Of a stretch of DNA of 64,000 nt, positions 1,188-34,801 are shown piece after piece. The DNA is taken from assembly GCA_965208905.1 (NCBI GenBank), contig OZ242365.1:1600001-1664000 (forward strand), read 5' to 3'. Position 1 is the first letter of the stretch, and every line of letters starts with the position of its first letter. Under the pieces are notes generated by a model. The model saw nothing but the letters and a program-made list of their open reading frames with translations, was not told the origin of the DNA and did not search any database. Made by a program: the position numbers and the translations under genes. This DNA is from Nitrosopumilaceae archaeon. Its GTDB lineage: Archaea; Thermoproteota; Nitrososphaeria; Nitrososphaerales; Nitrosopumilaceae.

Positions 1188-3419
1188 TCAACTAATCATG
1201 GTAAGCCCGTTCTGCTTGGCAACCTGGTGTATGTTGTGTACCATCCCTTCCATCTCATTCTCATGTGATACAATGATGCACTGGCCAACCTTCAGTTCAT
1301 GCAGCACGTCCCTGAACGCGTGCATCTGCTGGCGTGAGAACCCTTCGGTAGGCTCATCCAGTATCAATATGTCTATGCCCTCCACCTGCTGATTCAGTGC
1401 CAGACGGTACGCCAGGGATACCGATGTACGCTCACCGCCAGAGAGATTTCTTACATTTTGTTATATGCCTGTCTGTGTTAACATGGGCTCAAACTTTTCG
1501 GATATATGCGATGTCTTTGTCGCATCATCTACCAGACGATTATACCAGTGCTTGTACTGTGTTGCAAACCTCTCACGTCTCTCATGCAGTATGTATTGTT
1601 CGATTGTCTCGCACGCGGGTATGAATTTGTCTACCAACCATGAGATTGAATCCTTGTGCTTTGTGTATGCTGCCTTATGTTTGGTCTGCTGTGCAATCTC
1701 GCCGCCCAGCCGTTCCTTCTCCTTGTTTAGATTCTCCAATCTCTCCTCATGCCTTGCCAACGAATCCCGCGCGGCCTGCAGGAGTTTGTTACTCTCATCC
1801 CGCTTTGCTCTTATCTGGGCTTCAACACCCCTGGCCTCATCCAACTCCCTGTGCAGGCCTGGCAGCTTCTGATGTTGTTCATTGTATTCGGCCATCTGCG
1901 TTTCTATCTCCTGCTTGCGCTTGTACAGCTCGGATATGCGCGCCGACACAATACTGATGGTCTTTTGCGCATCCCTATATGCGGTATAATCCCTGTCATA
2001 GTTGGCACGCCTGTCAATGTCGGCCCTCACTCCCTCTATGTTGGTCTGGGGCAGTGACTCCAACTGTACAGTACATTCCCGGCGCTTGGAGTTTAGCGTA
2101 TCGTACAATTCCTTGTTTGTATTATACGTGTTGAGTTCTGCCTTGTACCTGTCGAATAGTACCTTGTATTCATCATGTTTTACCTGTCGCGTATACAGTT
2201 CGTCCTCCGCACTCTGCAACTGGTCCGATATTGCCTGTATATTTGACTGGCGTTTGGATTTCAGTCCCTCCACATCATGTATCGTACCATCACAATACTC
2301 GCACTTTGCTCCCGTATTCTTTATGGACTCAAACAACTCCCTGGCGCGCTGCAGGTCTGCGCGCAGCCGGCCAACCTCCTCGGTATGCGCGGCTATATTC
2401 AGTGCCTCCATGTCTTTCTGTAGGGTGTTGCTTTCCGGCTTGCGCAGAGCGGGCATCTCATCAGTGTAGCGCCGTATCGCATCCTGTAGTGTGGTGTATC
2501 TGCTCTGTATGTTCTGCGCATCGTATAGGCGTTGCTGAAGTGTTTCGGCATCATCCACATCTATATCTGCGGGCTTTTTGCAACTCTCGGCCTGCTTTAG
2601 TTCCTCGGAATACTTGCGTATCCCATCCAGCGGGGATTCACCCTCCAGTTTTGATACATCCAGCGACTCTATCTGCCTTATCTCCATCTCAGACTCACGT
2701 ATGATGTCCTGTATCTGGGATAGGCGCGCATCATAGTTGTTGTTCTCGTATTGTATGATGGCTGTGCGCGTGGTACTACATACCTCCCCAAGGTTTAGTA
2801 TGTCTTTGCGTATTGTGCGTATTGTAGACTTGTTTGCATCCATATTTTCAAAGCGCGGAGCCAAGCCCACACACTCCTGTTTGAGATGTTTTATCATCTC
2901 CTTGGCGTTCTGTACGGCCGTTGAATAGTCCTGTATGCCAAAGGCTCGGCGTATCACCTCCTCGCGGCCCGTACCGTTTAGTATTGATTTTATCTCCTCC
3001 TGTGGGGTGTATATTGCGTAGCGGTACACCTTTGAGCGGCCGGTCTCACCAAAGCCCAGTATCTGCAGTATGCGGGTGTTGAGGTCCGATGCGGTCAGCA
3101 ACTCCGTTATGCCGTTGCATATGATGCATGTATCTGTCTGTGAGGCGTTGCCGCCCTTGATGCGTATGGTACGCTGTACCTCGTATGTGTCATCACCTAC
3201 CTTGAATTTCAGACTCACCTCTGCGCTGCTCTTGCCTTTTGAAACAAACCCATCAGATGATATGTATCCGAACCCAAACAAGGCAAACTCTATGCCCATC
3301 AGTATGGTAGTCTTGCCCGAACCCATGTCACCGCGATACAGCGTAATACCATCCTGGAAATCCAGCCTCGTATCCTGATGGGAGCGTATATTGTGCAGTT
3401 TCAATGATACCAGTCTCAT
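1188..3419 (-). pseudogene. rad50: Rad50 ABC-ATPase interrupted by an in-frame TAA at 1461-1463
   Basis: Walker A GDMGSGKT, Q-loop YTPQEE, coiled coil with CEYC zinc hook; after the TAA the same frame continues [12 protein letters not shown]...ILILDEPT...IIVSH (signature, Walker B, H-loop). Confidence 0.9.
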
Positions 3420-4495
3420 AATATGTCCACCCCGTCTCGTATGATGCGAGCCGCATAGTCACGCTTTGTCTCATTTTCGGGCTTCTCGTGGCGCAGCGTA
3501 TGTAGTAATGTGATGCCGCGTCTATCATCCCCCATGACTTCCTTCATGATGTCATCTTCCGTATCGTGCGGCGAACGCTCCGCATGCCGCGTGTTGTGTA
3601 GTGGGAGTGTTGTATCATCCTGTATCTTTGTGTATAGAGCGTCGGTCCTGATGCTTGATATATCCGGCGGGGTCGTAACCTCACCATGTATGCGCATGTA
3701 TAGTATCTTGCCTGGATACACAAAATCCCCATGTATGTCGTCCGGCGTGATGGACAGGTATTGGTATTGTGCCAGTTGTACCGGTATGAATTCCGGTTTG
3801 TAATCATCATATATGACATATCCGCGCTTCACCCCGCGCGCCGAATTATACATATCGTTGGGATGCCCGCCAAACAGCGTACCCGGATATATGATGTTTT
3901 TGTTATGCGTCTGGTAATCATGCATGTGGCCACCCAGGTATAGTTTGCAGTCGGCGGGCAGCATCTCTGCGCTCATCATATCATATGTGCCTGATATGTC
4001 CCCGTGAAACAGGAATATGTCCGGCTGGTTCTGTAGTATGTAATCTTTATCCAATATACGATATAGTTCCGCGTCCCGCCCGAGTTTCAACCCCGGCAGT
4101 CCCATTATGCAATACTCCCCTACATGTGTTGGTGTTGGACGCACCTTCCCTTCGTGTATCGTCGTATATGATAGCTTCTGCATCAAGCCTGCAGCCACCA
4201 GGACGTCTATGAAGGAGTTTGAGAGGGGTGAAAAGTCATGGGAACCGTATATCGTATACACCGGAATGTTGTTCTCCTTCAATCTCATCAGCTGTTTAAT
4301 CGCCAATTTTTGCACACGCACCTCGGGTATATTCACATGGAATGTATCCCCGCAGAACAGTACTACACCTACACCGCGCTGTATTATGTCTGATATCACA
4401 TACTCGAATGTCTCTGATTCCAGTTTTTGCAGCACTACATCTTTTTGGTATCCCAGATGCGTGTCTGCAAGGTGTGCTAGTGTAGCCGGTTTCAT
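3416..4495 (-). CDS. mre11: Mre11 nuclease
   Basis: Phosphoesterase motifs ADTHLG, GDTFH, GSHD, FHG, GHMH; start moved to 4495 (27 nt after CCTTAAAA); ATGA overlap with rad50. Confidence 0.92.
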   Translation of the reverse strand: MKPATLAHLADTHLGYQKDVVLQKLESETFEYVISDIIQRGVGVVLFCGDTFHVNIPEVRVQKLAIKQLMRLKENNIPVYTIYGSHDFSPLSNSFIDVLVAAGLMQKLSYTTIHEGKVRPTPTHVGEYCIMGLPGLKLGRDAELYRILDKDYILQNQPDIFLFHGDISGTYDMMSAEMLPADCKLYLGGHMHDYQTHNKNIIYPGTLFGGHPNDMYNSARGVKRGYVIYDDYKPEFIPVQLAQYQYLSITPDDIHGDFVYPGKILYMRIHGEVTTPPDISSIRTDALYTKIQDDTTLPLHNTRHAERSPHDTEDDIMKEVMGDDRRGITLLHTLRHEKPENETKRDYAARIIRDGVDIL

Positions 4496-4664
4496 ACCGT
4501 TATACTGCTTCATCGCTTTTAAGGAGGAAAGTGAGGTATTCGACTCAAAATATTACTTGATTGGTGGGAAGTAAAGTTCAGATTACTGGGTTCTCCCTAC
4601 AAAGTAGACTGGCCCATGACCATACCCCCCGCCTACGATGTATTTCTTACCTGGGCGTGTTACA

Positions 4665-5210
4665 TTATGGTGTGGGTTTTTTCTTGGCCTCTTCGATTAG
4701 TCTAAAAATACTTCTGCATAATAAGCCACCATGCCTATCCTTACCGAACTCTTCCACACAATCCCAATAGGCTGTTGCCATTCTGTCTAGATGTTCTTGC
4801 ATTCTCTTTTGTTTCCCTGATGGGTTGTTCCTGTTCATGGCTTTGAGCTCATCTATGATATACTCCATGGATTGTAACATGCCTTCCATTGCGTTTAATG
4901 TGGCATTTCGCTTATCTTTCCCCTTACGGACCTCAGCCCCCAAATATTGGTAATTGGCTATTGCGTGGCTTGCAATATCCAACATATGTGTATGTACATA
5001 TGGACTTTTCATGGGCCACACACCCATATTACACCGCAAATCGTCATCCACAAGTCGATAGTGGCCTTGTCCAACAGACAACATATACATCAACTCACCA
5101 ATTGGTTTACTAACATCATCATAGTGTGTTTTAGTGGCTAATTTCACCTGATTATCACCCACGCATGGGTTTTGAAAATATTTCCCAACCCTACGGGAAC
5201 ATTCTATCAC
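4665..5210 (-). CDS. Hypothetical protein inserted in the repair cluster
   Basis: 181-aa ORF, no recognisable motif. Confidence 0.55.
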   Translation of the reverse strand: MIECSRRVGKYFQNPCVGDNQVKLATKTHYDDVSKPIGELMYMLSVGQGHYRLVDDDLRCNMGVWPMKSPYVHTHMLDIASHAIANYQYLGAEVRKGKDKRNATLNAMEGMLQSMEYIIDELKAMNRNNPSGKQKRMQEHLDRMATAYWDCVEEFGKDRHGGLLCRSIFRLIEEAKKKPTP

Positions 5211-5502
5211 ACACGGCTATATACCACACCATCCTTGCCGCCCTCTCGGTATACGCACTCTCCATACACTCCTCCCAACTTGAAGACCCCTTCAATACTA
5301 ATCCTATATCTGGTGTTACCTCTACATCTGTCGTGGGGGTGTTTAAGAAAAGGAAACCGAGAGATATGATTATACCAACTATCAGTAACACAACACCGAG
5401 ACCCATCTTGGTACGGGGTAATACACAGAAAATCCCACCTGTTACGGTCATACATATTCCCAACATGAAGATGGGGGAGTGTATCAACAACTCAGTTGTC
5501 AT
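5191..5502 (-). CDS. Small membrane protein (2 TM)
   Basis: Two hydrophobic stretches; preceded by a G11 run on the coding strand. Confidence 0.5.
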   Translation of the reverse strand: MTTELLIHSPIFMLGICMTVTGGIFCVLPRTKMGLGVVLLIVGIIISLGFLFLNTPTTDVEVTPDIGLVLKGSSSWEECMESAYTERAARMVWYIAVCDRMFP

Positions 5503-5559
5503 TTAGAGTCCCCCCCCCCCAGTACCAGGATAGCCCACATCTTCAAACAAAAAATCCAA

Positions 5560-6982
5560 CTAACCTATCACCTTATAGTCTGCACGTTTTGACTCCCGCG
5601 CCTCAAATAGTGGAATTTTAATCGGTATGGCAAACGGCACGAACACGCTGGATATGATGGCCTCACCCTTGTCAAGTCCTGCGATATTCAGCATGTCTTT
5701 TGAGAGGTCTTGCGCAGCAGACTCTATTACGGCCTTGCGTTCCTGTATCATCTCGTTGCCGAGTATAATCTTCGTGCCCAGATTCGCCAGTATGTCCCGC
5801 GGTATCATGCTTGTAAGCTGGGTGATTGCCACCAGACCGACCTTGAACTTGCGTCCCTCACGCGCAATCGTACCGAACACATTGCCCTCACCCATGTCGT
5901 TTAGCACGCGCGGCGCCTCCTCAAGTATTATGGATGCTACCGGCAACTCGTGCAGTCTGCCTTCCCGCTGTGCCATACGGTAATGATACAGTATGCTATA
6001 CGCGAGCACAGAACCTATGAGCAACTCCTCCTTGTCGTCCAGCGTGGATGTATCTATCACAACCACCTCTCCCGCCGCAACAGCACCAACAATATCATGT
6101 ACGGTATTGCCGCCGTCCAGCGTAAATGTCTCCCCCCTTCCTATATTCAGGGCGCGCCCAATTTTTCTGCGCAGTACGAGTCGTGTCCTAAGCACGCGCG
6201 CATCCAAGCCCTCATCATCACTCTCATCGAATAATCTGGCAATCCAGTCTCTGCCGTGTCTGCTGTTCAACTCCCACACCATGTCTGACTGCGCATCAGA
6301 CAGTTCGACAACCCCCCCTTAGCTGTGAGGGATGTATGTGCTGCGTGCTTATCGCGAGGCTCTTCCCGTACTGTTTGAGATTCCTGCCGGCCTTTGGATG
6401 GCTATCCAGCGTATGATACTCGTTATGCGCATCCAGTACCAGCATGCCGACATCATTTGAGTCCAAAAGATTCCACAGTATGTTCTTTACCAGGTTTGAC
6501 TTGCCGCGGCCGGTCGTCGCGGGTATCAACACATGGTGCGAGAACACATCCTGAGCGTTGAGTTTCACATCAACCCCAAGCACCTTACTGCCGCTCCGTA
6601 TCATGCCCAGCGATAGATTGTTGCGCGGGTCGCCGGACAGAAACCTAAAGTCCTCATCTGACACATCATGTATCTCGCCAAGAAACTTGGGTAGTTTCTT
6701 TGTCTTGTGCACCTCGCCTCCCCGCACATCACACAGCGCCTTTACGGTACAGATGATATACTCTGTGTCTTCCCGCTCTATGAAGTCATCCATGTGCTGT
6801 ATAGACCCGGCCATCATGCCCCACAGGTTCATGTTGTTCTTGGGTGCGTACTGTATATCATATACCTGCAGTATGTTGTGTTTTGTCTTTAGCAGGTCGC
6901 CTATCTCTATATCATAGTCCTCGGCCTGCCGTATTATGATCTCATCAAACGCCCCACCCATTACGCGTCCCACAACAGTCAT
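5560..6982 (-). pseudogene. herA: HerA helicase/translocase split by a +1 frameshift in a G7 run (6312-6318)
   Basis: HAS barrel N-terminus, ATTGRGKS, LDAHNEY; second ORF has ILEEAP, IAREGRKF, AITQ; removing one G joins them (LRGVVELSDAQSDM). Confidence 0.9.
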
Positions 6983-7977
6983 CTGTTCACCTCGTTTAGT
7001 TTTTCATGCATCTCCATGTCGGCTATGTCGCGCTGTATGTCTTTGGAGAGGTTGTGCCGGATCTTCCACAATACAATCCTGCCCTCGTCCTTTCTTATCT
7101 TCGCCATATGGTCGGCGCGTATCAAACCCGTGGGATACCCGTACATGCGCACATCCTTTGAGTTGGCGCGTATGGTATTCACAATATCATGTATGTCTTG
7201 TGTGTCCAATGTATCATATGCCGCCTGATCTATATCCAGCAGGTATGGCCTGCTTTTTTCATGCAACATAACACCGAGTGTGGCAGCCGCATCGCGCACG
7301 TGCCCAATCCTGACAAACGCAGGTCCCCGTGAATGCATACTGCGCAGGTGTGATATCAGGGGCCTGCCGTTGTACATCGCGTTTGTGGTCTTTGCCAGGG
7401 CGCATACGACAACACCCTTGCGGTGTGCTGCATGGCATAATTCCGACATTAACTGACTCTCCTTCCCACCCCATGCGTTCAATGCCCCGTCCATGACCAG
7501 TATGTTTAGTCTGTCTTTACACTCCATCTCCTGAATGATTTTTGTTGCATATGTCCACTCCGAATATGAGCGCGCCATTGAATCATGTCTGTGCGTCTGC
7601 GGGGCGTGTATCAGGGCAGATGCATCGTTCAGTATACGCTCCGATACCAGATACCCGCGCTCGTCCCGGTGTATTGGATATATTGCATGTGTGATGGGAT
7701 CATACCGTATAAGCGAATAGAACGACACGCGCGGATACTCCCGTATACGGCTCATTCCATTGTACGTGGCGCCGAACAGCCGGTTTATCTCCAGGTGGCA
7801 GTACGGCGTGTGCAGTATGCTCATGTTGCCGCCATCCACAAATGTACAATCCAGTGTGGTGTTTGACTGGATTGGCTCAAAACCATCGTCTATCCTTACA
7901 CTACCGCCAATTCCATCAAACGGTATGCGGTTTATCTCCTGTATGACGGCCTGCCGTATAACAGATACTGTACTCAT
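6979..7977 (-). CDS. nurA: NurA nuclease
   Basis: FVDGG, MDGAL, LAKTT, GYPxxLxxAD motifs; directly upstream of herA; start MSTVSV 27 nt after CCTTATA. Confidence 0.85.
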   Translation of the reverse strand: MSTVSVIRQAVIQEINRIPFDGIGGSVRIDDGFEPIQSNTTLDCTFVDGGNMSILHTPYCHLEINRLFGATYNGMSRIREYPRVSFYSLIRYDPITHAIYPIHRDERGYLVSERILNDASALIHAPQTHRHDSMARSYSEWTYATKIIQEMECKDRLNILVMDGALNAWGGKESQLMSELCHAAHRKGVVVCALAKTTNAMYNGRPLISHLRSMHSRGPAFVRIGHVRDAAATLGVMLHEKSRPYLLDIDQAAYDTLDTQDIHDIVNTIRANSKDVRMYGYPTGLIRADHMAKIRKDEGRIVLWKIRHNLSKDIQRDIADMEMHEKLNEVNR

Positions 7978-7998
7978 ACCCTCCTGATGCACGATACA

Positions 7999-8046
7999 AT
8001 ATAAGGCGCAATATGGCATTTTCCACACCCATATAGCGCCTTAAAT
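7999..8046. promoter_or_regulatory. Back-to-back promoters for nurA-herA and radA
   Basis: CATATAGCGCCTTAAA (+) and CATATTGCGCCTTATA (-), 28 and 27 nt from the respective ATGs. Confidence 0.8.
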
Positions 8047-8068
8047 GGAACGACACTTTACACTGCCA

Positions 8069-9043
8069 ATGGAAGATATACAACTTGACAGTCTGGAGGG
8101 CGTCGGACCGGTAACCGCACGCAAACTGGCTGAAGCAGGCATACACAACATCATGGATTTGGTAGTGCGGGGGCCCATTGAGATCTCCAACATCACAAGC
8201 ATGGAGAAGGAGGCTGCCGAAAAGCTGGTCACCAAGGCCAGAAAACATCTATCCGAAAGCGGGCAACTGGCAAAAGAGTTTGTCAGTGCGGCAGAAATCT
8301 ACAAACGTCGACAAGAGATAGGAAAGATATCCACCGGAACCGACTGCCTCGACACGCTGTTTGGCGGAGGCGTTGAGACGCAGGCCCTTACCGAGGTATA
8401 TGGTGAGTTTGGCTGCGGTAAGACCCAATTCTGCCACACCCTATGCGTCATGGTACAAAAGAGCATACAGGACGGCGGCCTTGGGGGCGGCGTGCTGTAT
8501 ATGGACTCTGAGAATACCTTCAGGCCTGAAAGAATAGCCTCTATTGCCAAGGCCAATGGCATGGACCCACAGCGCATACTGGAGAACATCATAGTGGCCC
8601 GTGCATACAACAGTGCCCATCAGATACTCATACTTGAGGAGGCCGGTGCGATAATACGTGAGAATAACATCAAGCTACTGGTGGCAGATTCGGCAGTCGG
8701 TCTGTTCAGATCCGAGTATCTGGGACGCGGCACACTGTCCGAGAGGCAGCAGAGATTAAACCACTTTGTGCACCTGTTGGTGCGCATAGCCGAGACGTAC
8801 AATGTTGCCGCGGTGGCCACCAACCAAGTGATGTCATCCCCGGATTCGTTCTTTGGGGATCCGACAAAGCCCATTGGAGGCAATGTGGTGGCTCATACCA
8901 GCACGTACAGGGTTTACTTTAAAAAGTCCGGCAAAAAGAGGATAGCCCGCATGGTGGACAGTCCGCACCATCCCGAGGAGGAGACGATGTTCGCCATAAG
9001 CGAGGCGGGCATAATCGACCCCGTAGAGCCAAAAACCAAGTAA
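8069..9043 (+). CDS. radA: Archaeal RadA recombinase
   Basis: HhH N-terminus LEGVGP, GEFGCGKT, TFRPERI, GRGTLSERQQ, PIGGNVVAH; start MEDIQL 28 nt after TTAAA; T-rich terminator 9044-9055. Confidence 0.97.
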   Translation: MEDIQLDSLEGVGPVTARKLAEAGIHNIMDLVVRGPIEISNITSMEKEAAEKLVTKARKHLSESGQLAKEFVSAAEIYKRRQEIGKISTGTDCLDTLFGGGVETQALTEVYGEFGCGKTQFCHTLCVMVQKSIQDGGLGGGVLYMDSENTFRPERIASIAKANGMDPQRILENIIVARAYNSAHQILILEEAGAIIRENNIKLLVADSAVGLFRSEYLGRGTLSERQQRLNHFVHLLVRIAETYNVAAVATNQVMSSPDSFFGDPTKPIGGNVVAHTSTYRVYFKKSGKKRIARMVDSPHHPEEETMFAISEAGIIDPVEPKTK

Positions 9044-9060
9044 TTTTTTTGTTTTATTTG

Positions 9061-9170
9061 ACCGGGGATCACCCCCCGGCAAGGTTTGCCGTGTAGGCAA
9101 ACCAGCAACATACAGCAGGGGCGCCGGACACTGACCCACGTGTGTGCTAGGACGTAAAGTCTCGCCCGGC
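9061..9170 (-). ncRNA. Structured small RNA: GCCGGGC pseudoknot plus two 3' hairpins, the last CRISPR-repeat-like
   Basis: Starts exactly 28 nt after GCGCCTTATA; GCCGGGC pairs with GUCCGGC; GGUUUGCC/GGCAAACC and CCGGGG/CCCCGG stems; no credible ORF. Confidence 0.7.
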
Positions 9171-9224
9171 CCTATGGATGCTGCGTGGCACAATATAAGG
9201 CGCTATGTGGCTTTGGGTCGAAAT

Positions 9225-9506
9225 TATTCAGTCGTATCTACAAGAGCATTCGGCGTGGTCAGGGGTTGACTGTAGCCGTTCCACGGAACCGTCCGTCATT
9301 GTTTTGGCGATGTCATGTGTATGGTGAAGTTATGGACATCCTACCACGCCTGCCTTTCGGCCAACCGAGGCTGTCCAGTGTACAGAAGTCATGTGTTTGT
9401 TGATGTTACGAAATAGTACGAGTACTACTGCTAGATGTTGTGACATGCATCGAGTGACAGTCCTCGGGCTTATTGTATGCCGTCTGTGTCGATGATGTGG
9501 CTTCAT
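9225..9506 (-). ncRNA. ~280-nt highly structured RNA candidate
   Basis: Own promoter (CCCTTAAACG, 28 nt); long-range stems 9456-9467/9365-9375 and 9340-9350/9252-9263, GCC-GAAA-GGC hairpin 9352-9361; a weak 58-codon ORF (9506-9330) is the alternative. Confidence 0.55.
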
Positions 9507-9590
9507 GCCAAGGTAGCAGATCGGTTACGTTTAAGGGAGTATATGGCTTTGGACTGATGGTGACTATAGTCCCACAACATCATAAAATTT

Positions 9591-9670
9591 AACCGGGGGC
9601 TTTGGGCCCCCGGCAAGGTCTGGGGGACTACCGCCCCCGACCTAGGCGCATACGCCGGCACCTACCATAA
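9591..9670 (-). ncRNA. Three-hairpin small RNA ending in a CRISPR-repeat-like stem-loop
   Basis: CCTTTAAA box ~30 nt upstream; stems UAGGUGC/GCGCCUA, GGUC-GGGGGC/GUCCCC-GACC (bulged), CCGGGGGC/GCCCCCGG; same ACCUUGCCGGGGG junction as the 9061 RNA. Confidence 0.6.
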
Positions 9671-9704
9671 GACGGTATGATACATATCGATTGCATTTAA
9701 AGGA

Positions 9705-11141: not shown

Positions 11142-11416
11142 ACCGTATCACATATGGTTGATCCGTTTTTGGGTTACTAAAAATTAGTTCTTTTGGAGTT
11201 TGTTGTTTGTCAAGTCTGCGCAATCTCTACACATCACAGGATTCACACCTCAATAATCGGCATACCGTGAAAGGGTGGTTTATCAGTCCCAAAAGTGGGT
11301 CCCACTAACATATAATCCGTGAAGGGCCTATAGTTTGATGCTGCCAGGTGGCCATCCAAGAGTCGCGCAGTTGGCTTTTTCGCGCTCCTTTGGTCCACGC
11401 GCCTTCACCCCTAACG

Positions 11417-12156: not shown

Positions 12157-12281
12157 GTATCTTATACTTCCTAGAAATATAAAAAGATAGGGTGCGTCCC
12201 ACGGGGGCTTATCCCTGTAACTACAACCTAGGGAATTATATCCATAAGTAAACATTACCCGTGCCTTTTCCTAGAGCCTTA

Positions 12282-24661: not shown

Positions 24662-27286
24662 CTATCGCACATCTATACTGAACGTCTTGAAGATAAACTG
24701 CGCAACAACACTCTCAAACTCCGTACTGGTGCATAATGGTGTGAAAGTGCCGGTTACACTTTGTATTGAAAGACGCACCTCAACAGGTATGTGCTCGCCC
24801 TGATGCGCCGGCACGGCAATAGTCCTTACCGTATAGCCTGAATCATCCGGCATACTGACGAACCTCCCGTAGCACCTATCGCTATATTTGGCGTACTCTT
24901 CCTGCTGCACATCATACGTATCAACCGTCCAACTGCCAAGACTGGTAACGGACTGGCCTACCCACACCTCACCGGTTGCGGTGAGTGTCCCATTATACCA
25001 TTTGCTGATGTTTCCCGTCCAGCCGGTATTATCCCCCATACCCAGAGCGGCAACCGACACGCCAATACTGGTAGTTATGTCCAGAGACAGCACGCCATCA
25101 CGCGGGGACTGCACCCCTCCCCTATACACGTATGTGCCCACGGACCCCGCATTAAATCCCCTATCCAGGGGCGCAACACCCTCCCCACCACCAAGTGATA
25201 AATATGAACTGCCAAACGGCAGGCCGTACAGCAAATACTGCGACTCCAGGATGTTGGGGGCTATCACCGTGCACAGATATGGGCGGTTTCCCAGTATCGG
25301 CACGTGTATGCTGTCACCGGCAACATAATCTCCATCCAGATAGTCCAAGTATGTGCGGCTGGCCTTGTATGCATTCTGCATTAGCATATTATGTTCAATG
25401 CCGCCTGTCGTGTTTGGGGCAAACAACAAAACCCCCAACATGTCTAGATCATACCCACCTGAACCATACGCTTCAAGTACTACACCCCTCAAATCCCCAG
25501 CCGTCACTGTTGACTCCGTGGGGCCGCACGGCAGGCTGGATAGATACGTACCGGATATACGGGTCGGTTTTACGACTGGTATTGTAGCATACATGTCTAC
25601 AATGACAAAACCATCTCTTGGCAACTCCACACCGTACAACTCCCAGAATGGATTCTTCTCTATGGCCATCCACGGTTCTATGTACGGCATGGGCAGATGC
25701 GTACCATCCCAGAATTTGAACATACCTATGTCGGTGCGCAGCATCTTGTGGTTCCGTATATCGTATATTTCAGACGACATGAGATTGCTTCTGTCTGATG
25801 CGCCGAGCAGTCTGAATTTGTCGGCAGCCGAATAATTAAACCCGTAGAAGTGTGGCTCAAACGGATCAAACGATGCAGAAGAGGGAGCCCACATAAAGTT
25901 AGTTCTGTTGGAATCGACAAACCTCACCTTGTAAGGCTTCCAATCAGTGGACGTATCATCATACAGGAACCCATGATATATCGGGTCGCCCGTATTGCTG
26001 TGCGCAATCCACCTGGTAGTTGTGTTTGTCATTTGGTTTATTTCATTTCGTACGGTCTGCATCTCGCGCAGTACGGGATGGTCTGCCGGTATCTCGCCCC
26101 TGCCGGGTATTATGAGCAGGTGTCGGTCGGCATTGTGTATTACGGCGGGCTTGTTTGCACGGTTGTAGATGCCGCCGTCAAACGCATGGCAGCACTCAGT
26201 GGCCCCACTGAGACGAACCTGCAGCTTGGCATCCACACCGGGGCTCGTAACTACTATCGCGCTGTTTTGTTCGGCGCTGTATATGGCATTCCAGCCCGGG
26301 TATAATGGCTGCCATGCCCTGGACTGGACGGCGCCAGTCTGCAGAGGGTCGGCGCCGCCACCCGTGCAGGCACCCACTATACTGTTGCCCGATATGGCCA
26401 GGTTGGGTGTGCAACCCCCGCCGTCCTGCCAGTATCCTATGTAATCACTCCGCGCGTTGGGCAGTGTGGAGTGCGACTCATGTATGCTGTCCCATGCAAG
26501 TCCTGTTAGGTTGCCCGCACGAAACACGTATGGTACGGCGGGTGTTACCGCCCAGGAACTGGTATGCCTGTACCCCAGAGTCTCAAAACTTCTCAGGGGC
26601 TCCACGTATGTGGCATGTGATGTATCGCGGCATTCGGGGCATGTAAACATAACCTCAAGCGTTGAGGTACTATTCGGCAGTCTCATGTGTATTATGGTGC
26701 GGCCATCAACAGGGAGATCCAACACGTGTCCGTACTGTGTGGTATTGGCGATGTACAGTGTGCTGTTTCGGAAGTTGTCCACACACCTTGTGCCGCCTAG
26801 ATGATTGCAGCTTCCCAGTATGTCTATTGAGGGGTGGGGGCCAACACGTGCAGTGGCCATATACGGCACGACGCCATGCCTTGCAATTTCGCCGACCGGC
26901 ATGTTTGCGTATAGATACTGTGATGCGCCGCCCCACTCGCTTATTATATCCGCCCGCATGTATGTTCGGGTTTTGTCATATGGCGGTAGTGGGTTTACGG
27001 TACCGGCCTCATCAAAATGTATTGTGGGCCCGGTGGTGGACGTCCTGCCGGCTGCCACTGCAATCATGGAATCCAGCGGCTCCATGTTCAGAAACGGCGC
27101 TGAATCGAATCCGGGCGGCCGCTCCGGGGGCGGTCCTATTATTGGGTATACGTTGCCCAAATCCGTAACAACCCAGAACTGTGTTATGTTCTGCGCCGTT
27201 TGTCCAAAGACGGCCGGCAGTATGCCGGCAGACAGTATTATTGCCATAACGCCAGCATACATGATGATGAAGGACCAACCTGCCAT
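24662..27286 (-). CDS. Large exported/surface protein (874 aa)
   Basis: Signal peptide; Gly/Thr/aromatic-rich. Confidence 0.75.
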   Translation of the reverse strand: MAGWSFIIMYAGVMAIILSAGILPAVFGQTAQNITQFWVVTDLGNVYPIIGPPPERPPGFDSAPFLNMEPLDSMIAVAAGRTSTTGPTIHFDEAGTVNPLPPYDKTRTYMRADIISEWGGASQYLYANMPVGEIARHGVVPYMATARVGPHPSIDILGSCNHLGGTRCVDNFRNSTLYIANTTQYGHVLDLPVDGRTIIHMRLPNSTSTLEVMFTCPECRDTSHATYVEPLRSFETLGYRHTSSWAVTPAVPYVFRAGNLTGLAWDSIHESHSTLPNARSDYIGYWQDGGGCTPNLAISGNSIVGACTGGGADPLQTGAVQSRAWQPLYPGWNAIYSAEQNSAIVVTSPGVDAKLQVRLSGATECCHAFDGGIYNRANKPAVIHNADRHLLIIPGRGEIPADHPVLREMQTVRNEINQMTNTTTRWIAHSNTGDPIYHGFLYDDTSTDWKPYKVRFVDSNRTNFMWAPSSASFDPFEPHFYGFNYSAADKFRLLGASDRSNLMSSEIYDIRNHKMLRTDIGMFKFWDGTHLPMPYIEPWMAIEKNPFWELYGVELPRDGFVIVDMYATIPVVKPTRISGTYLSSLPCGPTESTVTAGDLRGVVLEAYGSGGYDLDMLGVLLFAPNTTGGIEHNMLMQNAYKASRTYLDYLDGDYVAGDSIHVPILGNRPYLCTVIAPNILESQYLLYGLPFGSSYLSLGGGEGVAPLDRGFNAGSVGTYVYRGGVQSPRDGVLSLDITTSIGVSVAALGMGDNTGWTGNISKWYNGTLTATGEVWVGQSVTSLGSWTVDTYDVQQEEYAKYSDRCYGRFVSMPDDSGYTVRTIAVPAHQGEHIPVEVRLSIQSVTGTFTPLCTSTEFESVVAQFIFKTFSIDVR

Positions 27287-28148: not shown

Positions 28149-28787
28149 ATGATGCAACTTGTGTTGGAGAAGGACTGTTTGCACCACCTCGCGGCGATGT
28201 TGGGTGAGATGGACGAGGTGGTAGTCAGCCCAAAGCGCGGTGCGCTGGTTGCGTATGATATGGCCAGAACGCGGCGCATCTCGTATATCATACCGGAGAG
28301 TGATGAGGATGACACTGGCCTGCAGGGTATTATATTCGCCAAGATAGCAAAGCGGATACGCGATACATGTGATGTAAGCATTACACGGGATGGATGTATT
28401 CTACGGTCGGGCAGCACAACATACAAAATACGCCCGTTTATGGCGTCCGAATATCTGCCTACACCGGCTGCGGATCACACAGGCCAGGTTACGGTACGGG
28501 CAGAGGATGTGAAGGAGGCCCTCAAGGACATCCAAATATCAGGCTCAGGCGCCGTCGTAATATCAATACATGATAATATGGTGCGGTTTAGCGGCGTGGG
28601 GGCATTCGACGCGGAAATAGAGATACAGTCCACACATCATACGGGCATGGGATATTCCCGCCTGGACTGCGAGTTGCTGATGCTGTGCGCGCAGCACATG
28701 TACGGGGATATCACACTGCATCTATCGCCAAAGAAACCCACGGCAATCAAGTTTGGCGGTTTCACGTACCATCAGGCGGCGATGTGA
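28149..28787 (+). CDS. pcn: Divergent PCNA-like sliding clamp
   Basis: DEV, AYDMART, VKEALKDI, ITLHLSPKKP pattern; coupled to MCM; promoter identical over 19 bp to radA promoter. Confidence 0.7.
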   Translation: MMQLVLEKDCLHHLAAMLGEMDEVVVSPKRGALVAYDMARTRRISYIIPESDEDDTGLQGIIFAKIAKRIRDTCDVSITRDGCILRSGSTTYKIRPFMASEYLPTPAADHTGQVTVRAEDVKEALKDIQISGSGAVVISIHDNMVRFSGVGAFDAEIEIQSTHHTGMGYSRLDCELLMLCAQHMYGDITLHLSPKKPTAIKFGGFTYHQAAM

Positions 28788-30574
28788 TGATACCTGACAT
28801 ACACAAGACGCTCTCCGAGCGATACGTTGCCATTCCACATGCCGACCTGCCCGACGGCTTTACCGACAATCCCGAACCCGTGCTTTGGAAACTAATCGAC
28901 GAGTATAAGGAGTGTGTGTTCCGTACATCTCCCGAGCTGGTGCAGAGGCACAATGACTGGTCCGTGCGCATAGGGGTGGACGCAGACAACACCATACCCG
29001 TAAAGGATGTGGGCGTATCGCAGACAGGCAGGTATGTGCAGATACGCGGCATGGCGGCGCGCATAGGCCAGCCAACCCCGCGCGTTCTGGAGATAGCATG
29101 GGTGTGCCAGAAGTGCGAAAATGTGACGCGCAAGCCGCCGTCGGCGGGAAAGCCCGTGTGCTCGTGCGGTTCGCAGAACTTTAAGGTTGATCAGGACGGA
29201 TCAACCTTTGTTGACTCGCAGACAGTCATACTGGCCGAGAGGTTTGAGGAGATAACCGGCTCTAGGCCCCCAAGACTGCTGAGCTGCAGGCTGGACGGAA
29301 CGTTGATTCAGATACTCAACCCCGGAGATCGGTGCGTGGTGGGCGGCATACTCCGGATACTTGAGACCAAGCATGGATATGAGTATGAGTTGCAGGCCAA
29401 CAACGTCACACCATATAGGGAAAAGACGGTGGAGCCGCCACAACTGGAGGGTGACATACTTGAGAAGCTGGCAAAGTCGTTCGCGCCCCGCATATACGGC
29501 CATGAGATGCTAAAAAAGTCCATCATACTGTTGCTTGTAGGCGGCTCGGGTGCGATGGGTGGCCGCACAAACATAAACATGCTGCTTGTGGGGGATCCCG
29601 GGATTGCAAAGTCCTCACTTCTGCAGGATGCAGCGGACGTGGCGCCGCTGGGCAGATATACATCGGGACGCGGCGCGACCGCAGCGGGTTTGACGGCCGG
29701 CGTGGCGCGAGATAAGGACGGTGTGATGTATCTGGAGGCTGGAGCCGTCGTCTTGACCGATGGTGGTACTGTGTGTATTGATGAGTTTGACAAGACGGCG
29801 AAGGCAGACCGTACAGCCTTACACGAGGTCATGGAGCAGCAGACCGTCAGCATAACAAAGATTGGCACGATTGTCACACTGAAGGCTCGCGTATCCATAC
29901 TGGCGGCCGCCAACCCCAAAAAGTCTTTCTGGGACGACTCACTGTCGTTGGCTGAGAATATCAGTCTGCCCGACAGCCTCCTGACCAGGTTTGACTTGAT
30001 ATATGTCCTCCGGGACAAACGTGATGCGGATACGGACCGGAAGGTTGCGCGCCACATACTGCGCGGCGGGAGTGGGGATATTATGCAGCCTGCGGAGATT
30101 ACCGCGTATCTGGATTCGGTGCGCGGTCTTGCACCTGAGATGTCCGAGGAGGCGGCCGCGGCCCTTGAAGACTACTATACAATTGAGCGCCAAAAGTCCG
30201 TTGAGATAAGTATTACAGCGCGCCAACTGGAGGCTGCGCGCCGTCTTGCAGGTGCGCGGGCCAAAATATACCGGCGCGATGCAATAACCACAGATGACGT
30301 AAAGCATGCACTATACCTGCTGAAGAACATGATACAATACACACTGATTGATCCTGAGACTGGCAGACCCGACTACCTCAAGGCCACAACAGGGAAATCG
30401 CGCTCCGTTGTGCGCACCATAGACGAGGCGGTATCGTCTATGGGTGGGGACTTTACGGCCACTGATCTGGATGTACAGATGCCGTTTCTGGACATAGAGC
30501 GCGCTCTGGAGAAACTGCACCAGCAGGGCATACTGATGGAGTCCAAGCCGGGCATATACCGTGTGGTGCGTTAA
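28787..30574 (+). CDS. mcm: MCM helicase (N-terminally shortened)
   Basis: CQKC..CSC Zn motif, GDPGIAKS, TAAGLTA, IDEFDK, HEVMEQQ, AAANP, LLTRFDL. Confidence 0.95.
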   Translation: MIPDIHKTLSERYVAIPHADLPDGFTDNPEPVLWKLIDEYKECVFRTSPELVQRHNDWSVRIGVDADNTIPVKDVGVSQTGRYVQIRGMAARIGQPTPRVLEIAWVCQKCENVTRKPPSAGKPVCSCGSQNFKVDQDGSTFVDSQTVILAERFEEITGSRPPRLLSCRLDGTLIQILNPGDRCVVGGILRILETKHGYEYELQANNVTPYREKTVEPPQLEGDILEKLAKSFAPRIYGHEMLKKSIILLLVGGSGAMGGRTNINMLLVGDPGIAKSSLLQDAADVAPLGRYTSGRGATAAGLTAGVARDKDGVMYLEAGAVVLTDGGTVCIDEFDKTAKADRTALHEVMEQQTVSITKIGTIVTLKARVSILAAANPKKSFWDDSLSLAENISLPDSLLTRFDLIYVLRDKRDADTDRKVARHILRGGSGDIMQPAEITAYLDSVRGLAPEMSEEAAAALEDYYTIERQKSVEISITARQLEAARRLAGARAKIYRRDAITTDDVKHALYLLKNMIQYTLIDPETGRPDYLKATTGKSRSVVRTIDEAVSSMGGDFTATDLDVQMPFLDIERALEKLHQQGILMESKPGIYRVVR

Positions 30575-30857: not shown

Positions 30858-31376
30858 ATGAAAGGTACTATACGGGTGCAAAACATCATGGCACTCGCCA
30901 GCACGGGCCAAAAACTGGATCTAAAACATATAGCCGGACATATACCTGATGCCGTATATACAGATGACTTTCCAGGCATACGGTACCGCATACACGAGTT
31001 GAACTCCAGTGTGTTGTTGTTCCGCTCGGGCAACATAGTCTGCGCGGGGGCCAAGTCCGAAGAACATGTACACAGGGTATATGAGCATATATGCGATATA
31101 CTACGCAGACTCGGCTATGACACACAACAACCAAACATCACAATAACCAACATCGTGGCAACTGCAAACATCGGCCGCGGGCTGGACATGCAGTATGTCT
31201 CCGACCTGCTGCCCGGAGCAAGGTATGAGCCGGAGATGTATGCAGGCGTTACGTATCATGCCAAAAACAGGGTAGTCGCGCGCATACATGCATCAGGCAA
31301 GATAATCTTTGTCGGCGCCCGCTCCATGCAGGACATCGTAGATGCATACAACAACATACGCTCACTGCTGGCATAA
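30858..31376 (+). CDS. tbp: Divergent TATA-binding protein
   Basis: Two repeats: QNIMA..LDL..DFPG..LFRSGNIVCAGAKS and TNIVAT..YEPEMYAG..IHASGKIIFVGARS. Confidence 0.92.
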   Translation: MKGTIRVQNIMALASTGQKLDLKHIAGHIPDAVYTDDFPGIRYRIHELNSSVLLFRSGNIVCAGAKSEEHVHRVYEHICDILRRLGYDTQQPNITITNIVATANIGRGLDMQYVSDLLPGARYEPEMYAGVTYHAKNRVVARIHASGKIIFVGARSMQDIVDAYNNIRSLLA

Positions 31377-31587: not shown

Positions 31588-31953
31588 ATGTCAAACATAG
31601 AGTGTTTCAAATGCACAGATTGCACTGGATGTTATGACAACTACAAGTGCAAGGATTGCTCAGGCTGTACTGGATGTGTTGAGTGTGGGTGGTGTAAAGA
31701 TTGCTCGGATTGTTGGAGGTGCTATCATAGCACGAACTGCAAGGACTGCCACATAGCGAACGACTGTATTAAATGTGTGGGCTGTGAAAAATCTATGGGT
31801 TGTGTGGACTGTCATTACTGTGAGGGTTGCCTGAATTGTAAAAACTGCCTTCAATGTGTGAATTGCACCAACTGTGTGAATTGCACGGATTGTAAGGATT
31901 GTGAGGGTCTGGTCGGCAAGACCGGCTGGCGAAACAACCAGCCACCTGCTTAA
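31588..31953 (+). CDS. Cys-rich (CxxC)n repeat protein, copy 2
   Basis: 3-residue Cys periodicity; ends LVGKTGWRNNQPPA. Confidence 0.82.
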   Translation: MSNIECFKCTDCTGCYDNYKCKDCSGCTGCVECGWCKDCSDCWRCYHSTNCKDCHIANDCIKCVGCEKSMGCVDCHYCEGCLNCKNCLQCVNCTNCVNCTDCKDCEGLVGKTGWRNNQPPA

Positions 31954-32451: not shown

Positions 32452-34287
32452 ATGGATTTAAAGTCATTTCTTTCGGCCAAGTCAAAGAAAAGCACGCCCA
32501 TCACATATCAGGTGAACGGCATAAACTACAGAGCACTGTCACCGGACGACCAGCGCGAGCAGGAGGAGGCATTCCTTACGATACTGCGCTCTCTGGAGAA
32601 ACCCGTCGAGATAGCGCGCGCACCGCAGGGTGGTGTACTGTATGACGGCACCGAATACTCGCAGTACATGATATACTTTACATCCGAGCAGGACCTGGAG
32701 GTTCCGCTTCGCCGCGCAGGGTACTCACCCGTTCGGCTGGACAGGCCGTTCACGCACAATGTCAAACAGGAGTATGCAGACCACCTGCAACTGGCCGATG
32801 ACTCGCGCGTGCGCGTATACAACATATACGGTCTAAGGCACGGGCTGAACGAGACGGCCTGGATTATCAACCTGCCCTCGCACGAGATAATCACGCGCAT
32901 ATATCCCATGGAGCCATCAAAGGCAAGAAGCGAACTGACAAAGTTCATCAATGTGGGCGCCTCAAGGATGAACGACCCCACAATAAATTATGATGTGCAG
33001 GAGGCAATACAACTGCGCACGGCCATAAACAATGACGAGACCGGCATGGTGGAGGTATCGATACACGCACTGCAGTACGGCTTTGACGCAAAACATCTGC
33101 GGGAGGAGTGCAGAAACATGGAGCGCACATGCAGGCTCCAACAACTGCGATACACGACCGTGCGCGGCCTGCAGAGAAGGTTGCTTGAGGGGTGGGGCAA
33201 CTCGTTCATATTCGAGATTGGCTCGGCAGCGCTGGCATTCTTTCCGTTTAATTCCGCAGACTTGGTAGAGCCGGGCGGCGTCATACTTGGATACAACAAC
33301 ATGACCGAGACTCCGGTGGTGTATGATTATACGCGCAGGGTAAACTCAAACGTAACGTTTGTCGGTGAATCCGGCAAGGGCAAGTCCACGACCACAAAAA
33401 CATACCTGGACAACTTTCTGTCCCGCTCCACGCAAAACACGATGGTCACCATAATAGACCCGCACGGCGAGTATGTTGCACTCGCAGAGAGGTGGAACTG
33501 CGAGGTGCGCGATCTGGCCAAGCGTGACAATATGGGCCTGGATCCGTTCAGGATATTGGACAATCCATCCAACGCGGTCGGACTTTTGGCAGAGTGTACC
33601 GGCATGGATGATGCCGCAAAGTCCGTCTGCATATCCCAATGTGAAGGCATACAGTCCGTACACGACATGCATAAGACATTGGATACATCAGACTACCAGA
33701 AGGATGTATCAAGACGTGCGGCGGCATATCTTGCGCAGTTCACGTCATCCGATATCGCGGGGATATTTGAGGGAGATCCCACCGCCCCGCAGCGTGTAAT
33801 ATACACACTGCGCGGGGAGGACAAGACCAGGCTGAACGCGATGCTTGTATCGATGGTGATGGCGCGCGCCTGGCGCTCGATGCGCGAGGCCGAGACGCAT
33901 ACGCCAAAACTTTTCGTGATAGACGAGGGGTGGTACGTATCATCGATGGATGCGACCGGAGCAATACTTTCGGATATAGCCCGTTCGGGCCGCAAGGAGA
34001 ACGTGCATCTGCTGTTTTTGACCCAAGAGCCGGACGACATACTGAACAACCAGTACGGCAAGGATGTGCTGATGAACTCCGATACTACGTTTTTGCTGGG
34101 CCTGAAGCCCGCACTGGCCGACCAGCTGCAGTCGGTACTACATTTGTCGGATACCGAGAAGAAGGATGTCGAACGACTGGGTCTGGGTGATTGCATTCTG
34201 CGGGCCGGAGCCAACCGCATATACATGCACTGTACGCCCACTGCGCAACAGATGACGGCATTTACGACCAAGCCTGGTGATGTGTAA
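32452..34287 (+). CDS. VirB4-like conjugation/secretion ATPase
   Basis: GESGKGKS, IDPHGEY, FVIDEGW, RSGRK, TQEP. Confidence 0.85.
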   Translation: MDLKSFLSAKSKKSTPITYQVNGINYRALSPDDQREQEEAFLTILRSLEKPVEIARAPQGGVLYDGTEYSQYMIYFTSEQDLEVPLRRAGYSPVRLDRPFTHNVKQEYADHLQLADDSRVRVYNIYGLRHGLNETAWIINLPSHEIITRIYPMEPSKARSELTKFINVGASRMNDPTINYDVQEAIQLRTAINNDETGMVEVSIHALQYGFDAKHLREECRNMERTCRLQQLRYTTVRGLQRRLLEGWGNSFIFEIGSAALAFFPFNSADLVEPGGVILGYNNMTETPVVYDYTRRVNSNVTFVGESGKGKSTTTKTYLDNFLSRSTQNTMVTIIDPHGEYVALAERWNCEVRDLAKRDNMGLDPFRILDNPSNAVGLLAECTGMDDAAKSVCISQCEGIQSVHDMHKTLDTSDYQKDVSRRAAAYLAQFTSSDIAGIFEGDPTAPQRVIYTLRGEDKTRLNAMLVSMVMARAWRSMREAETHTPKLFVIDEGWYVSSMDATGAILSDIARSGRKENVHLLFLTQEPDDILNNQYGKDVLMNSDTTFLLGLKPALADQLQSVLHLSDTEKKDVERLGLGDCILRAGANRIYMHCTPTAQQMTAFTTKPGDV

Positions 34288-34523
34288 TGTCGAAGGTTCT
34301 TGCGCAGCGTACTGTACAGGCATCCGGGAATAATATAACATGTGAGATCATTGCTACCGGGAACGGACCTGCACTCAAGGTAGAGGATTGTCCTCTTGTG
34401 CCGCTATCATTGGCGGAGACGCATAAACTGCTGTATAGGTTCGCGCGTGCAACACCTGGTGATGGGGAGGGGCTTACGCCGGCCGGTGAACGGCTGGCGG
34501 CAGTATTGGGGGAGTTGGTATGA
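34287..34523 (+). CDS. Hypothetical protein
   Basis: Translationally coupled between VirB4 and SSB. Confidence 0.6.
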   Translation: MSKVLAQRTVQASGNNITCEIIATGNGPALKVEDCPLVPLSLAETHKLLYRFARATPGDGEGLTPAGERLAAVLGELV

Positions 34524-34801
34524 AGCAGTACGACAACCTCAAGTATGCGCAGCGCGCCGGCTCAGATATTACTTTACGCTGTACAATACATGCAGTATAC
34601 CCCATAGAGAAGCGGGGAGGGGTTGATGTGCGCAGACTGGACATAACAGATGGTACAATGACGGCAAAACTCGTGGTGTTTGGCAATCAAGCCCAAATGC
34701 CGTACAAAAAGGAGCATAGTATAGTTGCCGGGCCCGTATATTATAGCGACCAGTACCAGAACTTTTCACTAAAGCGCGGCGGCTTCATACACATTCAGTA
34801 G
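34520..34801 (+). CDS. OB-fold ssDNA-binding protein
   Basis: LDITDGTMTAKLVVFG...SLKRGG resembles archaeal SSB/RPA OB fold. Confidence 0.65.
   Translation: MKQYDNLKYAQRAGSDITLRCTIHAVYPIEKRGGVDVRRLDITDGTMTAKLVVFGNQAQMPYKKEHSIVAGPVYYSDQYQNFSLKRGGFIHIQ

Follow-up and report, generated by a model that had tools for sequence, protein, structure and literature searches.

A second set of homologous recombination genes on a large chromosomal island of conjugative type in a sponge-associated Nitrosopumilaceae archaeon

Introduction

Integrative conjugative elements (ICEs) of thaumarchaea have been described as carrying genes for VirB4, VirD4, VirB6, TadC, a prepilin peptidase and TFIIB, with no relaxase (PMC6563490; PMC5797428). 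According to the main text of the 2019 survey of these elements, their replication modules vary, the TFIIB gene is usually followed by one for ParB, and the median size is 64 kb (PMC6563490). The words Mre11, NurA, TATA and PCNA are absent from that main text, and the one RadA it mentions is an inactivated homolog carried by a cryptic element (PMC6563490). MCM on thaumarchaeal integrated elements has already been described. Here we analyze a stretch of 64,000 nucleotides (the window) from the genome of a Nitrosopumilaceae archaeon, contig OZ242365.1. The window lies inside a chromosomal island of about 197 kb in which conjugation genes of the ICE type stand together with a second NurA-HerA-Mre11-Rad50 operon, a second RadA and a second Hjc.

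The island resembles the described thaumarchaeal ICEs in its VirB4- and VirD4-like ATPases, its VirB6-like candidate, TadC, FlaI/PilT-type ATPase, prepilin peptidase and TFIIB, and also in that no relaxase was seen, here among the 89 open reading frames (ORFs) scanned (PMC6563490). Compared with those elements as the survey's main text presents them, it is large, at about 197 kb; neither a tyrosine integrase nor att repeats turned up in it, no ParB gene accompanies its TFIIB-type gene (TFB), and it carries a full NurA-HerA-Mre11-Rad50 operon, RadA, Hjc, TBP, a probable clamp, an SSB-like protein, PriL, TopoVI and ribonucleotide reductase (PMC6563490).

The nurA-herA-mre11-rad50 operon is known from archaeal chromosomes (PMC9905601). 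The operon on the island has the same genes in the same order, with overlapping ends and the catalytic motifs (PMC9905601), but it duplicates the host operon on a mobile island at 29 to 50% identity, with an extra ORF of 181 amino acids and with interrupted Rad50 and HerA frames. Beltran et al. (2023) proposed that HerA-NurA makes the single-stranded DNA (ssDNA) for the Ced and Ted systems, and HerA and Rad50 genes adjoin the Ted genes (PMC9905601). The island likewise has VirB4 and VirB6-type genes beside HerA and Rad50 genes; Ced and Ted, however, are domesticated chromosomal import systems of Thermoproteales, whereas on the present Nitrosopumilaceae element the operon is complete and is joined by RadA and Hjc (PMC9905601). 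We identified no pilin homolog here, a further difference from Ced and Ted. The link between HerA-NurA and conjugation genes is physical and more complete on the island than in Ced/Ted, but a related element in another genome of the genus (G009) is without it.

Large phages carry recombination modules, for example T4 gp46/47 with UvsX, and haloarchaeal megaplasmids carry extra TBP, TFB and Orc genes. Like these, the island is a large mobile replicon with its own end-resection, recombinase and transcription-factor paralogs; unlike them, it has no virion genes and no Orc1, is integrated, and belongs to another domain and element type. Full-text searches of the literature for homologous recombination genes on conjugative elements of archaea, or in thaumarchaea of sponges, found no such report. 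The kind of element, a thaumarchaeal ICE, is already known, and a recombination module on such an element is unusual. The island is shown by its genes to be an integrated thaumarchaeal-type conjugative element, single or composite, and we consider it probable that its accessory recombination module serves the element's own DNA.

Results

The source contig is a single-contig genome of 2,214,775 bp, and the window spans its positions 1,600,001-1,664,000; coordinates below are those of the window unless given as genome positions. The genome contains an archaeal amoA (E = 1.7e-116), which makes the host an ammonia oxidiser and bears out the thaumarchaeal host that an earlier note made from the letters of this DNA had supposed. 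Several public runs with parts of the window's DNA bear a sponge metagenome label, and the host is shown to be a sponge-associated, amoA-bearing archaeon of the Nitrosopumilaceae type. In its closest relative, G005, whose DNA is about 90 to 98% identical over the shared parts, synteny ends at genome position 1,584,809 and returns at about 1,781,742. Between these borders, matches to G005 and G008 are close to nil apart from RadA and small pieces resembling insertion sequences (IS). Synteny with G005, GC content (50.6% in the window versus 45.6% in the genome) and matches to G009 mark out an island specific to this strain, about 197 kb long (genome 1,584,810-1,781,740), that encloses the whole window (1-64000).

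The island is integrated in the chromosome in a single copy, because the genome forms one contig and depth is equal in run X1, where contigs of the element have depths of 15.6 to 17.9 and the contig with the chromosomal RadA locus 16.7; X1 is probably the source sample, so it is not independent of the assembly. The earlier note had pictured a large plasmid or ICE seen over some 34 kb, and neither a free plasmid nor that extent agrees with an element of about 197 kb at chromosomal depth within a single-contig chromosome. Its observation that metabolic, ribosomal and virion genes are missing was borne out, as no such families were seen in Pfam scans of 59 window ORFs (a further 30 island ORFs outside the window were also scanned, 89 in all). 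In the flanks, inside the window and adjoining it, the genes are those of restriction-modification, IS elements and conjugation, not core genes. Nor are the recombination genes the organism's only copies, since canonical ones lie elsewhere in the genome.

A tblastn search of 52 window proteins against their own genome was used to find these paralogs. The most complete set is an operon on the minus strand, in the order NurA-HerA-orf181-Mre11-Rad50, whose four shared genes are ordered as in the host operon at genome 1,201,267-1,207,593 and are 29 to 50% identical to the host copies. As in archaeal resection operons generally, nurA, herA, mre11 and rad50 are adjacent on one strand; their frames are not all uninterrupted, Rad50 having an in-frame TAA and HerA a frameshift. 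The first gene encodes a NurA paralog (6979-8028). The Pfam NurA match is weak (E = 0.0025), but identity to host NurA is 29 to 32% over about 300 amino acids and the conserved blocks align, which upholds the name it had been given. Its closest database relative, P0001, is 92% identical and is the only close one. Across the genus (9 other genomes), the order (150) and the family (400, with G643, flagged unpublished, among them), no copy of NurA above 33 to 35% identity was found, and no close relatives were found in JGI metagenome contigs. In G006, a second NurA lies isolated among repeats and IS genes and has one internal TGA.

The HerA paralog (5560-6982) is split over two ORFs, 6296-6982 for the N-terminal part (DUF87, E = 8e-20) and 5560-6282 for the C-terminal half, which are 44% and 50% identical to host HerA, with 58% identity over the core. 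In a tree of the C-terminal part, the window HerA is sister to the whole family clade (support of 93/95 for the family without it), on a branch of length 1.61 compared to a median of 0.12. HerA may be either an older capture or a fast-evolving gene, and long-branch effects are possible. Between HerA and Mre11 lies the ORF of 181 amino acids (4665-5210), which has no counterpart in the host operon, no Pfam or NCBIfam family, and no paralog in its own genome. The Mre11 paralog (3416-4513; Metallophos, E = 2.9e-12) is apparently intact and 37% identical to host Mre11, its phosphoesterase motifs align with those of the host copy, and its gene overlaps the start of Rad50 by 4 nucleotides. The Rad50 paralog (1194-3419, called as ORF 1461-3419; AAA_23, E = 6.4e-20) is 29% identical to that of the host. 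In alignments with the host copies, conserved motifs are intact in Mre11, NurA, Hjc, MCM and TBP. The distance from the operon to a VirB6-like gene is 1.7 kb.

On the plus strand, divergent from NurA, is a full-length RadA recombinase with a Rad51 domain (8045-9043; Rad51, E = 3.6e-89), 90% identical in amino acids and 83.5% in nucleotides to the chromosomal RadA (genome 2,193,877-2,194,830). The Walker A stretch GEFGCGKTQ and the Walker B region are unchanged relative to host RadA. A DNA tree of 14 RadA genes places the element copy inside the genus clade (100/100), and a protein tree puts it, at the end of a longer branch, together with the chromosomal RadA of G000, G005 and G008 (90/98); in the latter tree the row for G004, a wrong-frame translation with a branch length of 10, was disregarded. 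Between window and host RadA, the nonsynonymous rate (dN) is 0.056 and the synonymous rate (dS) 0.96, a ratio of 0.058, and host-host pairs give 0.04 to 0.05. This tree position, together with a dN/dS near that of host-host pairs, shows that RadA was captured from the host's own lineage and has since then been under strong purifying selection and kept functional. Judged by the same sequences, the capture is roughly as old as the split between G000 and G008.

The Hjc Holliday-junction resolvase paralog (18188-18670, minus strand; Hjc, E = 1.4e-8) has the Hjc domain and conserved blocks that align with host Hjc (genome 1,977,608), among them the acidic and lysine residues that are presumably catalytic. 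It is 37% identical to the host protein and 66% to a copy on the G009 element. RadA is conserved and the rest divergent, as the first reading of this DNA had it: 90% identity to the host for RadA compares with 29 to 50% for NurA, HerA, Mre11 and Rad50, 35% for MCM and 37% for Hjc. The gene trees called for in the earlier note agree, with RadA inside the genus clade and HerA on a long branch sister to the family clade. Compared with RadA, the four-gene operon is shown by these identities and trees to be either a much older or a faster-evolving acquisition.

Pfam matches confirmed ten of the gene assignments made in that note (Rad50, Mre11, HerA, RadA, Hjc, MCM, TFB, TBP, the VirB4-like gene and the prepilin peptidase). 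Among the conjugation genes, the VirB4-like ATPase (32452-34287, plus strand) matches AAA_10 (E = 1e-13) and the TraG P-loop domain (E = 5.7e-9) and is 77% identical to its G009 counterpart. A VirD4/TrwB-like coupling protein, which had been suggested as something to look for beyond the window, is indeed encoded there (genome 1,751,097-1,753,355; TrwB_AAD_bind, E = 8.9e-12; TraG-D_C, E = 1.6e-6); a search of the genome with PF02534 gave no match. The VirB6-like candidate (9705-11141, minus strand) is a polytopic membrane protein with a 58% identical homolog in G009. Its eight predicted membrane spans are in keeping with the VirB6 label, which no family match backs (Pfam at E up to 10, NCBIfam). 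The prepilin (type IV leader) peptidase (19205-19735, minus strand) scores 26.5 bits with Peptidase_A24, exactly at the cut-off, and has four membrane spans and a 58% identical homolog in G009.

Outside the window, the island encodes a TadC-type protein (T2SSF, E = 1.7e-14) and a T2SSE ATPase of the VirB11/FlaI type (genome 1,753,300-1,755,375, minus strand; T2SSE, E = 5.6e-25). The latter carries an intein-like insert (Intein_splicing, E = 3.7e-5). Two exported proteins had been predicted in the window, and both have the N-terminal hydrophobic segment: one of 568 amino acids, exported or membrane-anchored (13582-15288, minus strand), whose 60% identical G009 homolog lies beside VirB6-like and TFB genes, and one of 874 amino acids (24662-27286, minus strand) with no family in Pfam or NCBIfam. 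The island thus has the marks by which thaumarchaeal ICEs are recognized, namely a VirB4/TrbE-like and a VirD4/TraG-like ATPase and TadC with a FlaI/PilT-type ATPase and a prepilin peptidase. The TFIIB of the ICE pattern is present as well, with one TFB in the window and three more downstream in the island. ParB was not found in the island, the sole ParB_N match in the genome being at 820,885. No relaxase was found among the 89 ORFs scanned, and no genome-wide search aimed at relaxase families was made.

Several replication and transcription factors are also duplicated. The MCM helicase paralog (28787-30574, plus strand; MCM, E = 1e-78; MCM_OB, E = 7.2e-19; MCM_lid, E = 4.6e-13) is 35% identical to host MCM (genome 777,738), with Walker A and B aligned. 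Directly upstream, the ORF at 28149-28787 (plus strand) is probably a sliding clamp of the PCNA/gp45 type, judging from weak, mutually consistent hints in its sequence. Its ESM features lie at 0.95 to gp45/PCNA clamp clusters; an hhalign comparison with host PCNA (genome 381,469) gave E = 0.0028 and 31% identity over 135 columns at a probability of only 10.8%; NCBIfam sliding-clamp families match at E = 0.006 to 0.09, far under their cut-offs, with a beta-clamp match at E = 0.084. The AlphaFold2 model, with a predicted local distance difference test (pLDDT) score of 31.6, is unusable. The name PCNA given to this ORF in the first reading therefore has weak but consistent hints behind it, with family scores under their cut-offs and a failed fold model. 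Clamp-like proteins in the database are 93% and 90% identical to it. Its stop codon, TGA, runs into the MCM start codon, ATG (TGATG at 28785-28789), and this stop/start overlap ties the clamp-like gene to the MCM helicase by translational coupling.

The small protein of 93 amino acids at 34520-34801 (plus strand) had been called an SSB. Family searches gave no sequence match, so the name holds at the level of the fold and not of the sequence: its model has a pLDDT of 95.9, the top PDB matches are RPA/SSB OB domains (TM score of 0.62 to 0.77, E of about 2e-3), and its ESM features lie at 0.93 to 0.94 to OB_Ssb-like clusters. The structure prediction supports, at fold level, an SSB-like OB fold and a predicted ssDNA binder. 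A 52% identical homolog in G009 is also next to VirB4. The TBP paralog (30858-31376, plus strand; TBP, E = 3.4e-40) is 32 to 34% identical to host TBPs, and the TFB paralog (12848-13744, minus strand; TFIIB, E = 1.1e-24) is 54% identical to its homolog on the G009 element.

Beyond the window, the island adds a second PriL, TopoVI A/B, ribonucleotide reductase and another TBP, of which host copies exist elsewhere in the genome, as well as three more TFBs, an ArdC-like protein, methylases, TnpB and IS110 genes. Canonical TBPs, TFBs, ribonucleotide reductase, TopoVI and PriL are all present elsewhere in the genome. At genome 1,776,194-1,777,407 there is a truncated NurA'/RadA' remnant that preserves the divergent junction, with 90 to 91% protein identity in the NurA N terminus, 80% in the RadA N terminus, and 93 to 94% identity in DNA. 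The remnant indicates what may be either an internal duplication or a second, degraded copy of the element in the island.

Much of the island has relatives in one region of G009. Of 316 ORFs called in genome 1,560,001-1,910,000, 71 match that region, 61 of them within 1,590,200-1,776,107. These 61 island ORFs map to G009:C1 2.31-2.42 Mb (DNA matches continue to about 2.44 Mb), and the matching ORFs are 30 to 77% identical and shuffled in order. The genus thus contains a large element related to this one. GC content is 56 to 70% in G009:C1 2,300,001-2,420,000 and G006:C1 1,560,001-1,620,000, compared to 45.6% in the present genome; the GC span among these genomes, all placed in the same genus, is unusually wide.

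The remaining cargo of the window includes a Fic/DOC-domain protein (11417-12052, minus strand; Fic, E = 1.4e-11), a trypsin-like peptidase (16144-17433, plus strand; Trypsin_2, E = 3.9e-17), a PLD-family nuclease (17636-18169, plus strand; PLDc_2, E = 4.8e-15) with a weak DrmC-like PADLOC match, and an MmeI-type restriction-modification enzyme (21465-24161, plus strand) with five MmeI domains, the best at E = 2.7e-85. The restriction-modification load is dense (window 21465-24161, 35816-41543 and 62031-63811; genome 1,590,200-1,591,543) and consists of the MmeI-type enzyme, Dam, a type II restriction endonuclease-like HATPase protein, Dcm with Vsr, a NotI-like enzyme with a D12 methylase, and an Mrr-like nuclease. 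A defence system of the Hma type occupies 46357-54430, with HmaC (DUF499), HmaB (DUF1156 methylase) and HmaA (SNF2 helicase) in ORFs 46399-48861, 48842-51484 and 51474-54584. Two further copies of it, at about 73% DNA identity, are found at genome 140,539-148,578 and 1,116,997-1,125,036.

Repeated sequences were noted as well. An IS66-family transposase element at 42014-44110 recurs at genome 1,540,360-1,542,456 with 98.5% identity. A family of small proteins rich in cysteine, which share many CxxC repeats and conservation at the C-terminal end, has at least five copies in the island. Two are in the window, one directly downstream of TFB (12519-12968, minus strand) and the other directly downstream of TBP (31588-31953, plus strand), and others are at genome 1,589,904, 1,591,975 and 1,711,069. 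Intergenic repeats of about 105 nucleotides occur in two pairs, one inverted and 89% identical (9683-9790 and 36806-36913) and one direct and 82% identical (15258-15359 and 35678-35784). They may be shared regulatory regions, and one of them also matches a G008 contig. An ORF of 177 amino acids without a family (37237-37770, minus strand) contains an internal duplication of about 100 nucleotides at 96% identity (37327-37428 and 37573-37674).

Discussion

If the recombination module is, as we think probable, at the service of the conjugative element that carries it, it could act as follows. Mre11-Rad50 and HerA-NurA would resect DNA ends, RadA would exchange strands and Hjc would resolve the junctions, abilities that we ascribe to them because of the established roles of these protein families. 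The module could rescue or replicate a very large transferred molecule (about 200 kb) by recombination, and could let the element's DNA recombine into the recipient chromosome, neither an integrase nor an initiator being recognisable on it. The clamp-MCM-SSB-PriL set and the TBP and TFB paralogs would recruit host machinery to the element. In the present genome, the element would be fixed and the module starting to decay.

Several observations weigh against this reading, and they begin with its own structure: the identity of the element is plain from its genes, and the module's service to that element is something we infer. The module is also damaged. The Rad50 frame is stopped by a TAA at 1461-1463, and HerA is frameshifted in a run of seven G (6312-6318, minus strand). 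In the read-through translation, the 88 codons past the Rad50 stop still code for the signature motif, Walker B and the H-loop. We compared contigs of four runs over window positions 1-20000: X1, X5 (from another study, under another organism label), X6 (the only one of the four labelled as a sponge metagenome) and X7. X1 is identical to the assembly at both sites. At 6312, X5 and X6 are one base shorter, which opens the HerA frame (473 amino acids), and X5, X6 and X7 have a G at 1463, which turns TAA into CAA and opens the Rad50 frame (743 amino acids); stretches that X6 and X7 do not cover were left aside. Independently, the protein database holds P0004, a protein of 743 amino acids that is 91% identical to the window Rad50. 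Among the X5 differences listed in Rad50 and Mre11, 28 of 31 are synonymous, a count that comes from the 40 tool-chosen differences displayed out of 985 over 20 kb, 31 of which fall in these two genes. The intact relatives and the synonymous changes count in favour of the reading. From the nonsense mutation in Rad50 and the frameshift in HerA, we infer that the recombination module may be newly decaying in this genome; such decay fits an element that would now be fixed in the chromosome.

Signs of mobility are wanting too. The genome has no match to tyrosine, SSV-type or serine recombinases (PF00589, PF16795 and PF00239), although recombinase profile searches gave matches in control archaea, with PF00589 found in all 14 control genomes. 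PF00589 likewise had no match in the whole genomes of G000, G005, G008 and G009. These four seem to be without an Xer-type recombinase detectable by this profile. No partial duplicates that would mark att sites were found for the nearby tRNA genes checked (Ser/Arg at genome 1,664,528-1,664,679, Met at 1,672,832 and Ile at 1,722,105). The tyrosine integrase and flanking direct repeats of ICEs are accordingly not seen here. Neither an empty site nor an excised form was found; in G005 the two flanks lie apart, and a simple insertion therefore cannot be demonstrated. Given that att sites, an empty site and an excised form were all missing, recent mobility is not established, and accretion of several elements is possible. 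Of the two replication and integration functions that the earlier note had proposed to seek outside the window, neither integrase nor Orc1/Cdc6 was found in the island, the only genomic Orc1/Cdc6 being chromosomal (411,971). Its term autonomous is doubtful for these reasons, namely the lack of a recombinase in the genome, an Orc1/Cdc6 that is chromosomal only, and the broken Rad50 and HerA.

The G009 element also speaks against a central role. In the 120 kb of it that were examined, NurA, Mre11, Rad50, RadA and MCM were not found; it has a HerA-like C-terminal fragment only, beside a TFB, and the G009 genome has one NurA, the canonical one. Because this related element is without the module, the module is an accessory of one branch of the element family and not part of the family core, and is dispensable for the family.

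A different way of putting the same genes to work seems unlikely to us but deserves thought: HerA-NurA and Mre11-Rad50 would make ssDNA for VirB4 and VirD4, and RadA with Hjc would insert it, so that the module would substitute for both relaxosome and integrase. No relaxase is known for archaeal conjugative elements, as the main text of the survey has it (PMC6563490), and HerA-NurA has been proposed as the ssDNA maker for Ced and Ted (PMC9905601). The resection operon lies only 1.7 kb from the VirB6-like gene, and no integrase was found in G000 or G009. Yet the G009 relative has conjugation genes without the module, no close element NurA turned up in 400 other genomes of the family, and the module is decaying here.

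We give a similarly small chance to the island being a junkyard, that is, a non-mobile collection of IS-shuffled remnants of several elements in which the paralogs merely ride along, serve no function and are in the course of being lost. Its many IS and TnpB genes, the truncated NurA'/RadA' remnant at 1,776,194-1,777,407, the broken Rad50 and HerA, the lack of integrase and att sites, and flanks rearranged relative to G005 would all be expected of such an island. Passengers without a role would not, however, be expected to retain a RadA dN/dS of 0.06 over a dS of about 1, 28 synonymous changes out of 31 listed in Rad50 and Mre11, or intact versions in other samples; the conjugation genes are also full length and 58 to 77% identical to those of G009, and the stop-start overlap of the clamp-like gene and MCM has been kept.

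It is highly improbable that HerA-NurA and Mre11-Rad50 are an antiphage or antiplasmid nuclease, comparable to HerA-linked systems or SbcCD, carried as cargo in a defence island. The neighbourhood invites the idea, with MmeI, Dcm-Vsr, NotI-like, Mrr, PLD nuclease, Fic and Hma genes close by, and the C-terminal part of HerA has weak PADLOC HerA matches (2.8e-12). We rejected it because NurA has no PADLOC match and HerA, with weak matches only, is closest to housekeeping copies: it is 58% identical to host HerA over the core and branches beside the family's housekeeping copies. The genes, moreover, stand in the same order as in the housekeeping operon, and RadA and Hjc come along with the module. 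As for a plasmid wrongly joined into the chromosome, or a core region with the organism's only copies, differing GC content alone points that way, and we rejected both as having next to no probability in view of the single 2.2-Mb contig, an element depth equal to chromosomal depth in X1, canonical copies elsewhere, and the island's being missing from G005 and G008 save for small pieces.

The island bears on how archaeal conjugative DNA is prepared and established, for which no relaxase is known and the 2023 paper proposes HerA-NurA (PMC9905601). On the island, VirB4, VirD4 and VirB6-type genes stand in physical linkage with a full resection operon, a recombinase and a resolvase, and no integrase is detectable; its intact variants in other sponge samples give that proposal a concrete object. 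If the module does substitute for both relaxase and integrase, these variants would offer a natural setting in which to test the HerA-NurA hypothesis of archaeal conjugation. The island is also an example of how far the duplication of host information-processing genes by a mobile element can go, from homologous recombination through MCM, clamp, SSB, PriL, TopoVI and ribonucleotide reductase to TBP and TFBs, and such a module appears to have been caught here while starting to decay.

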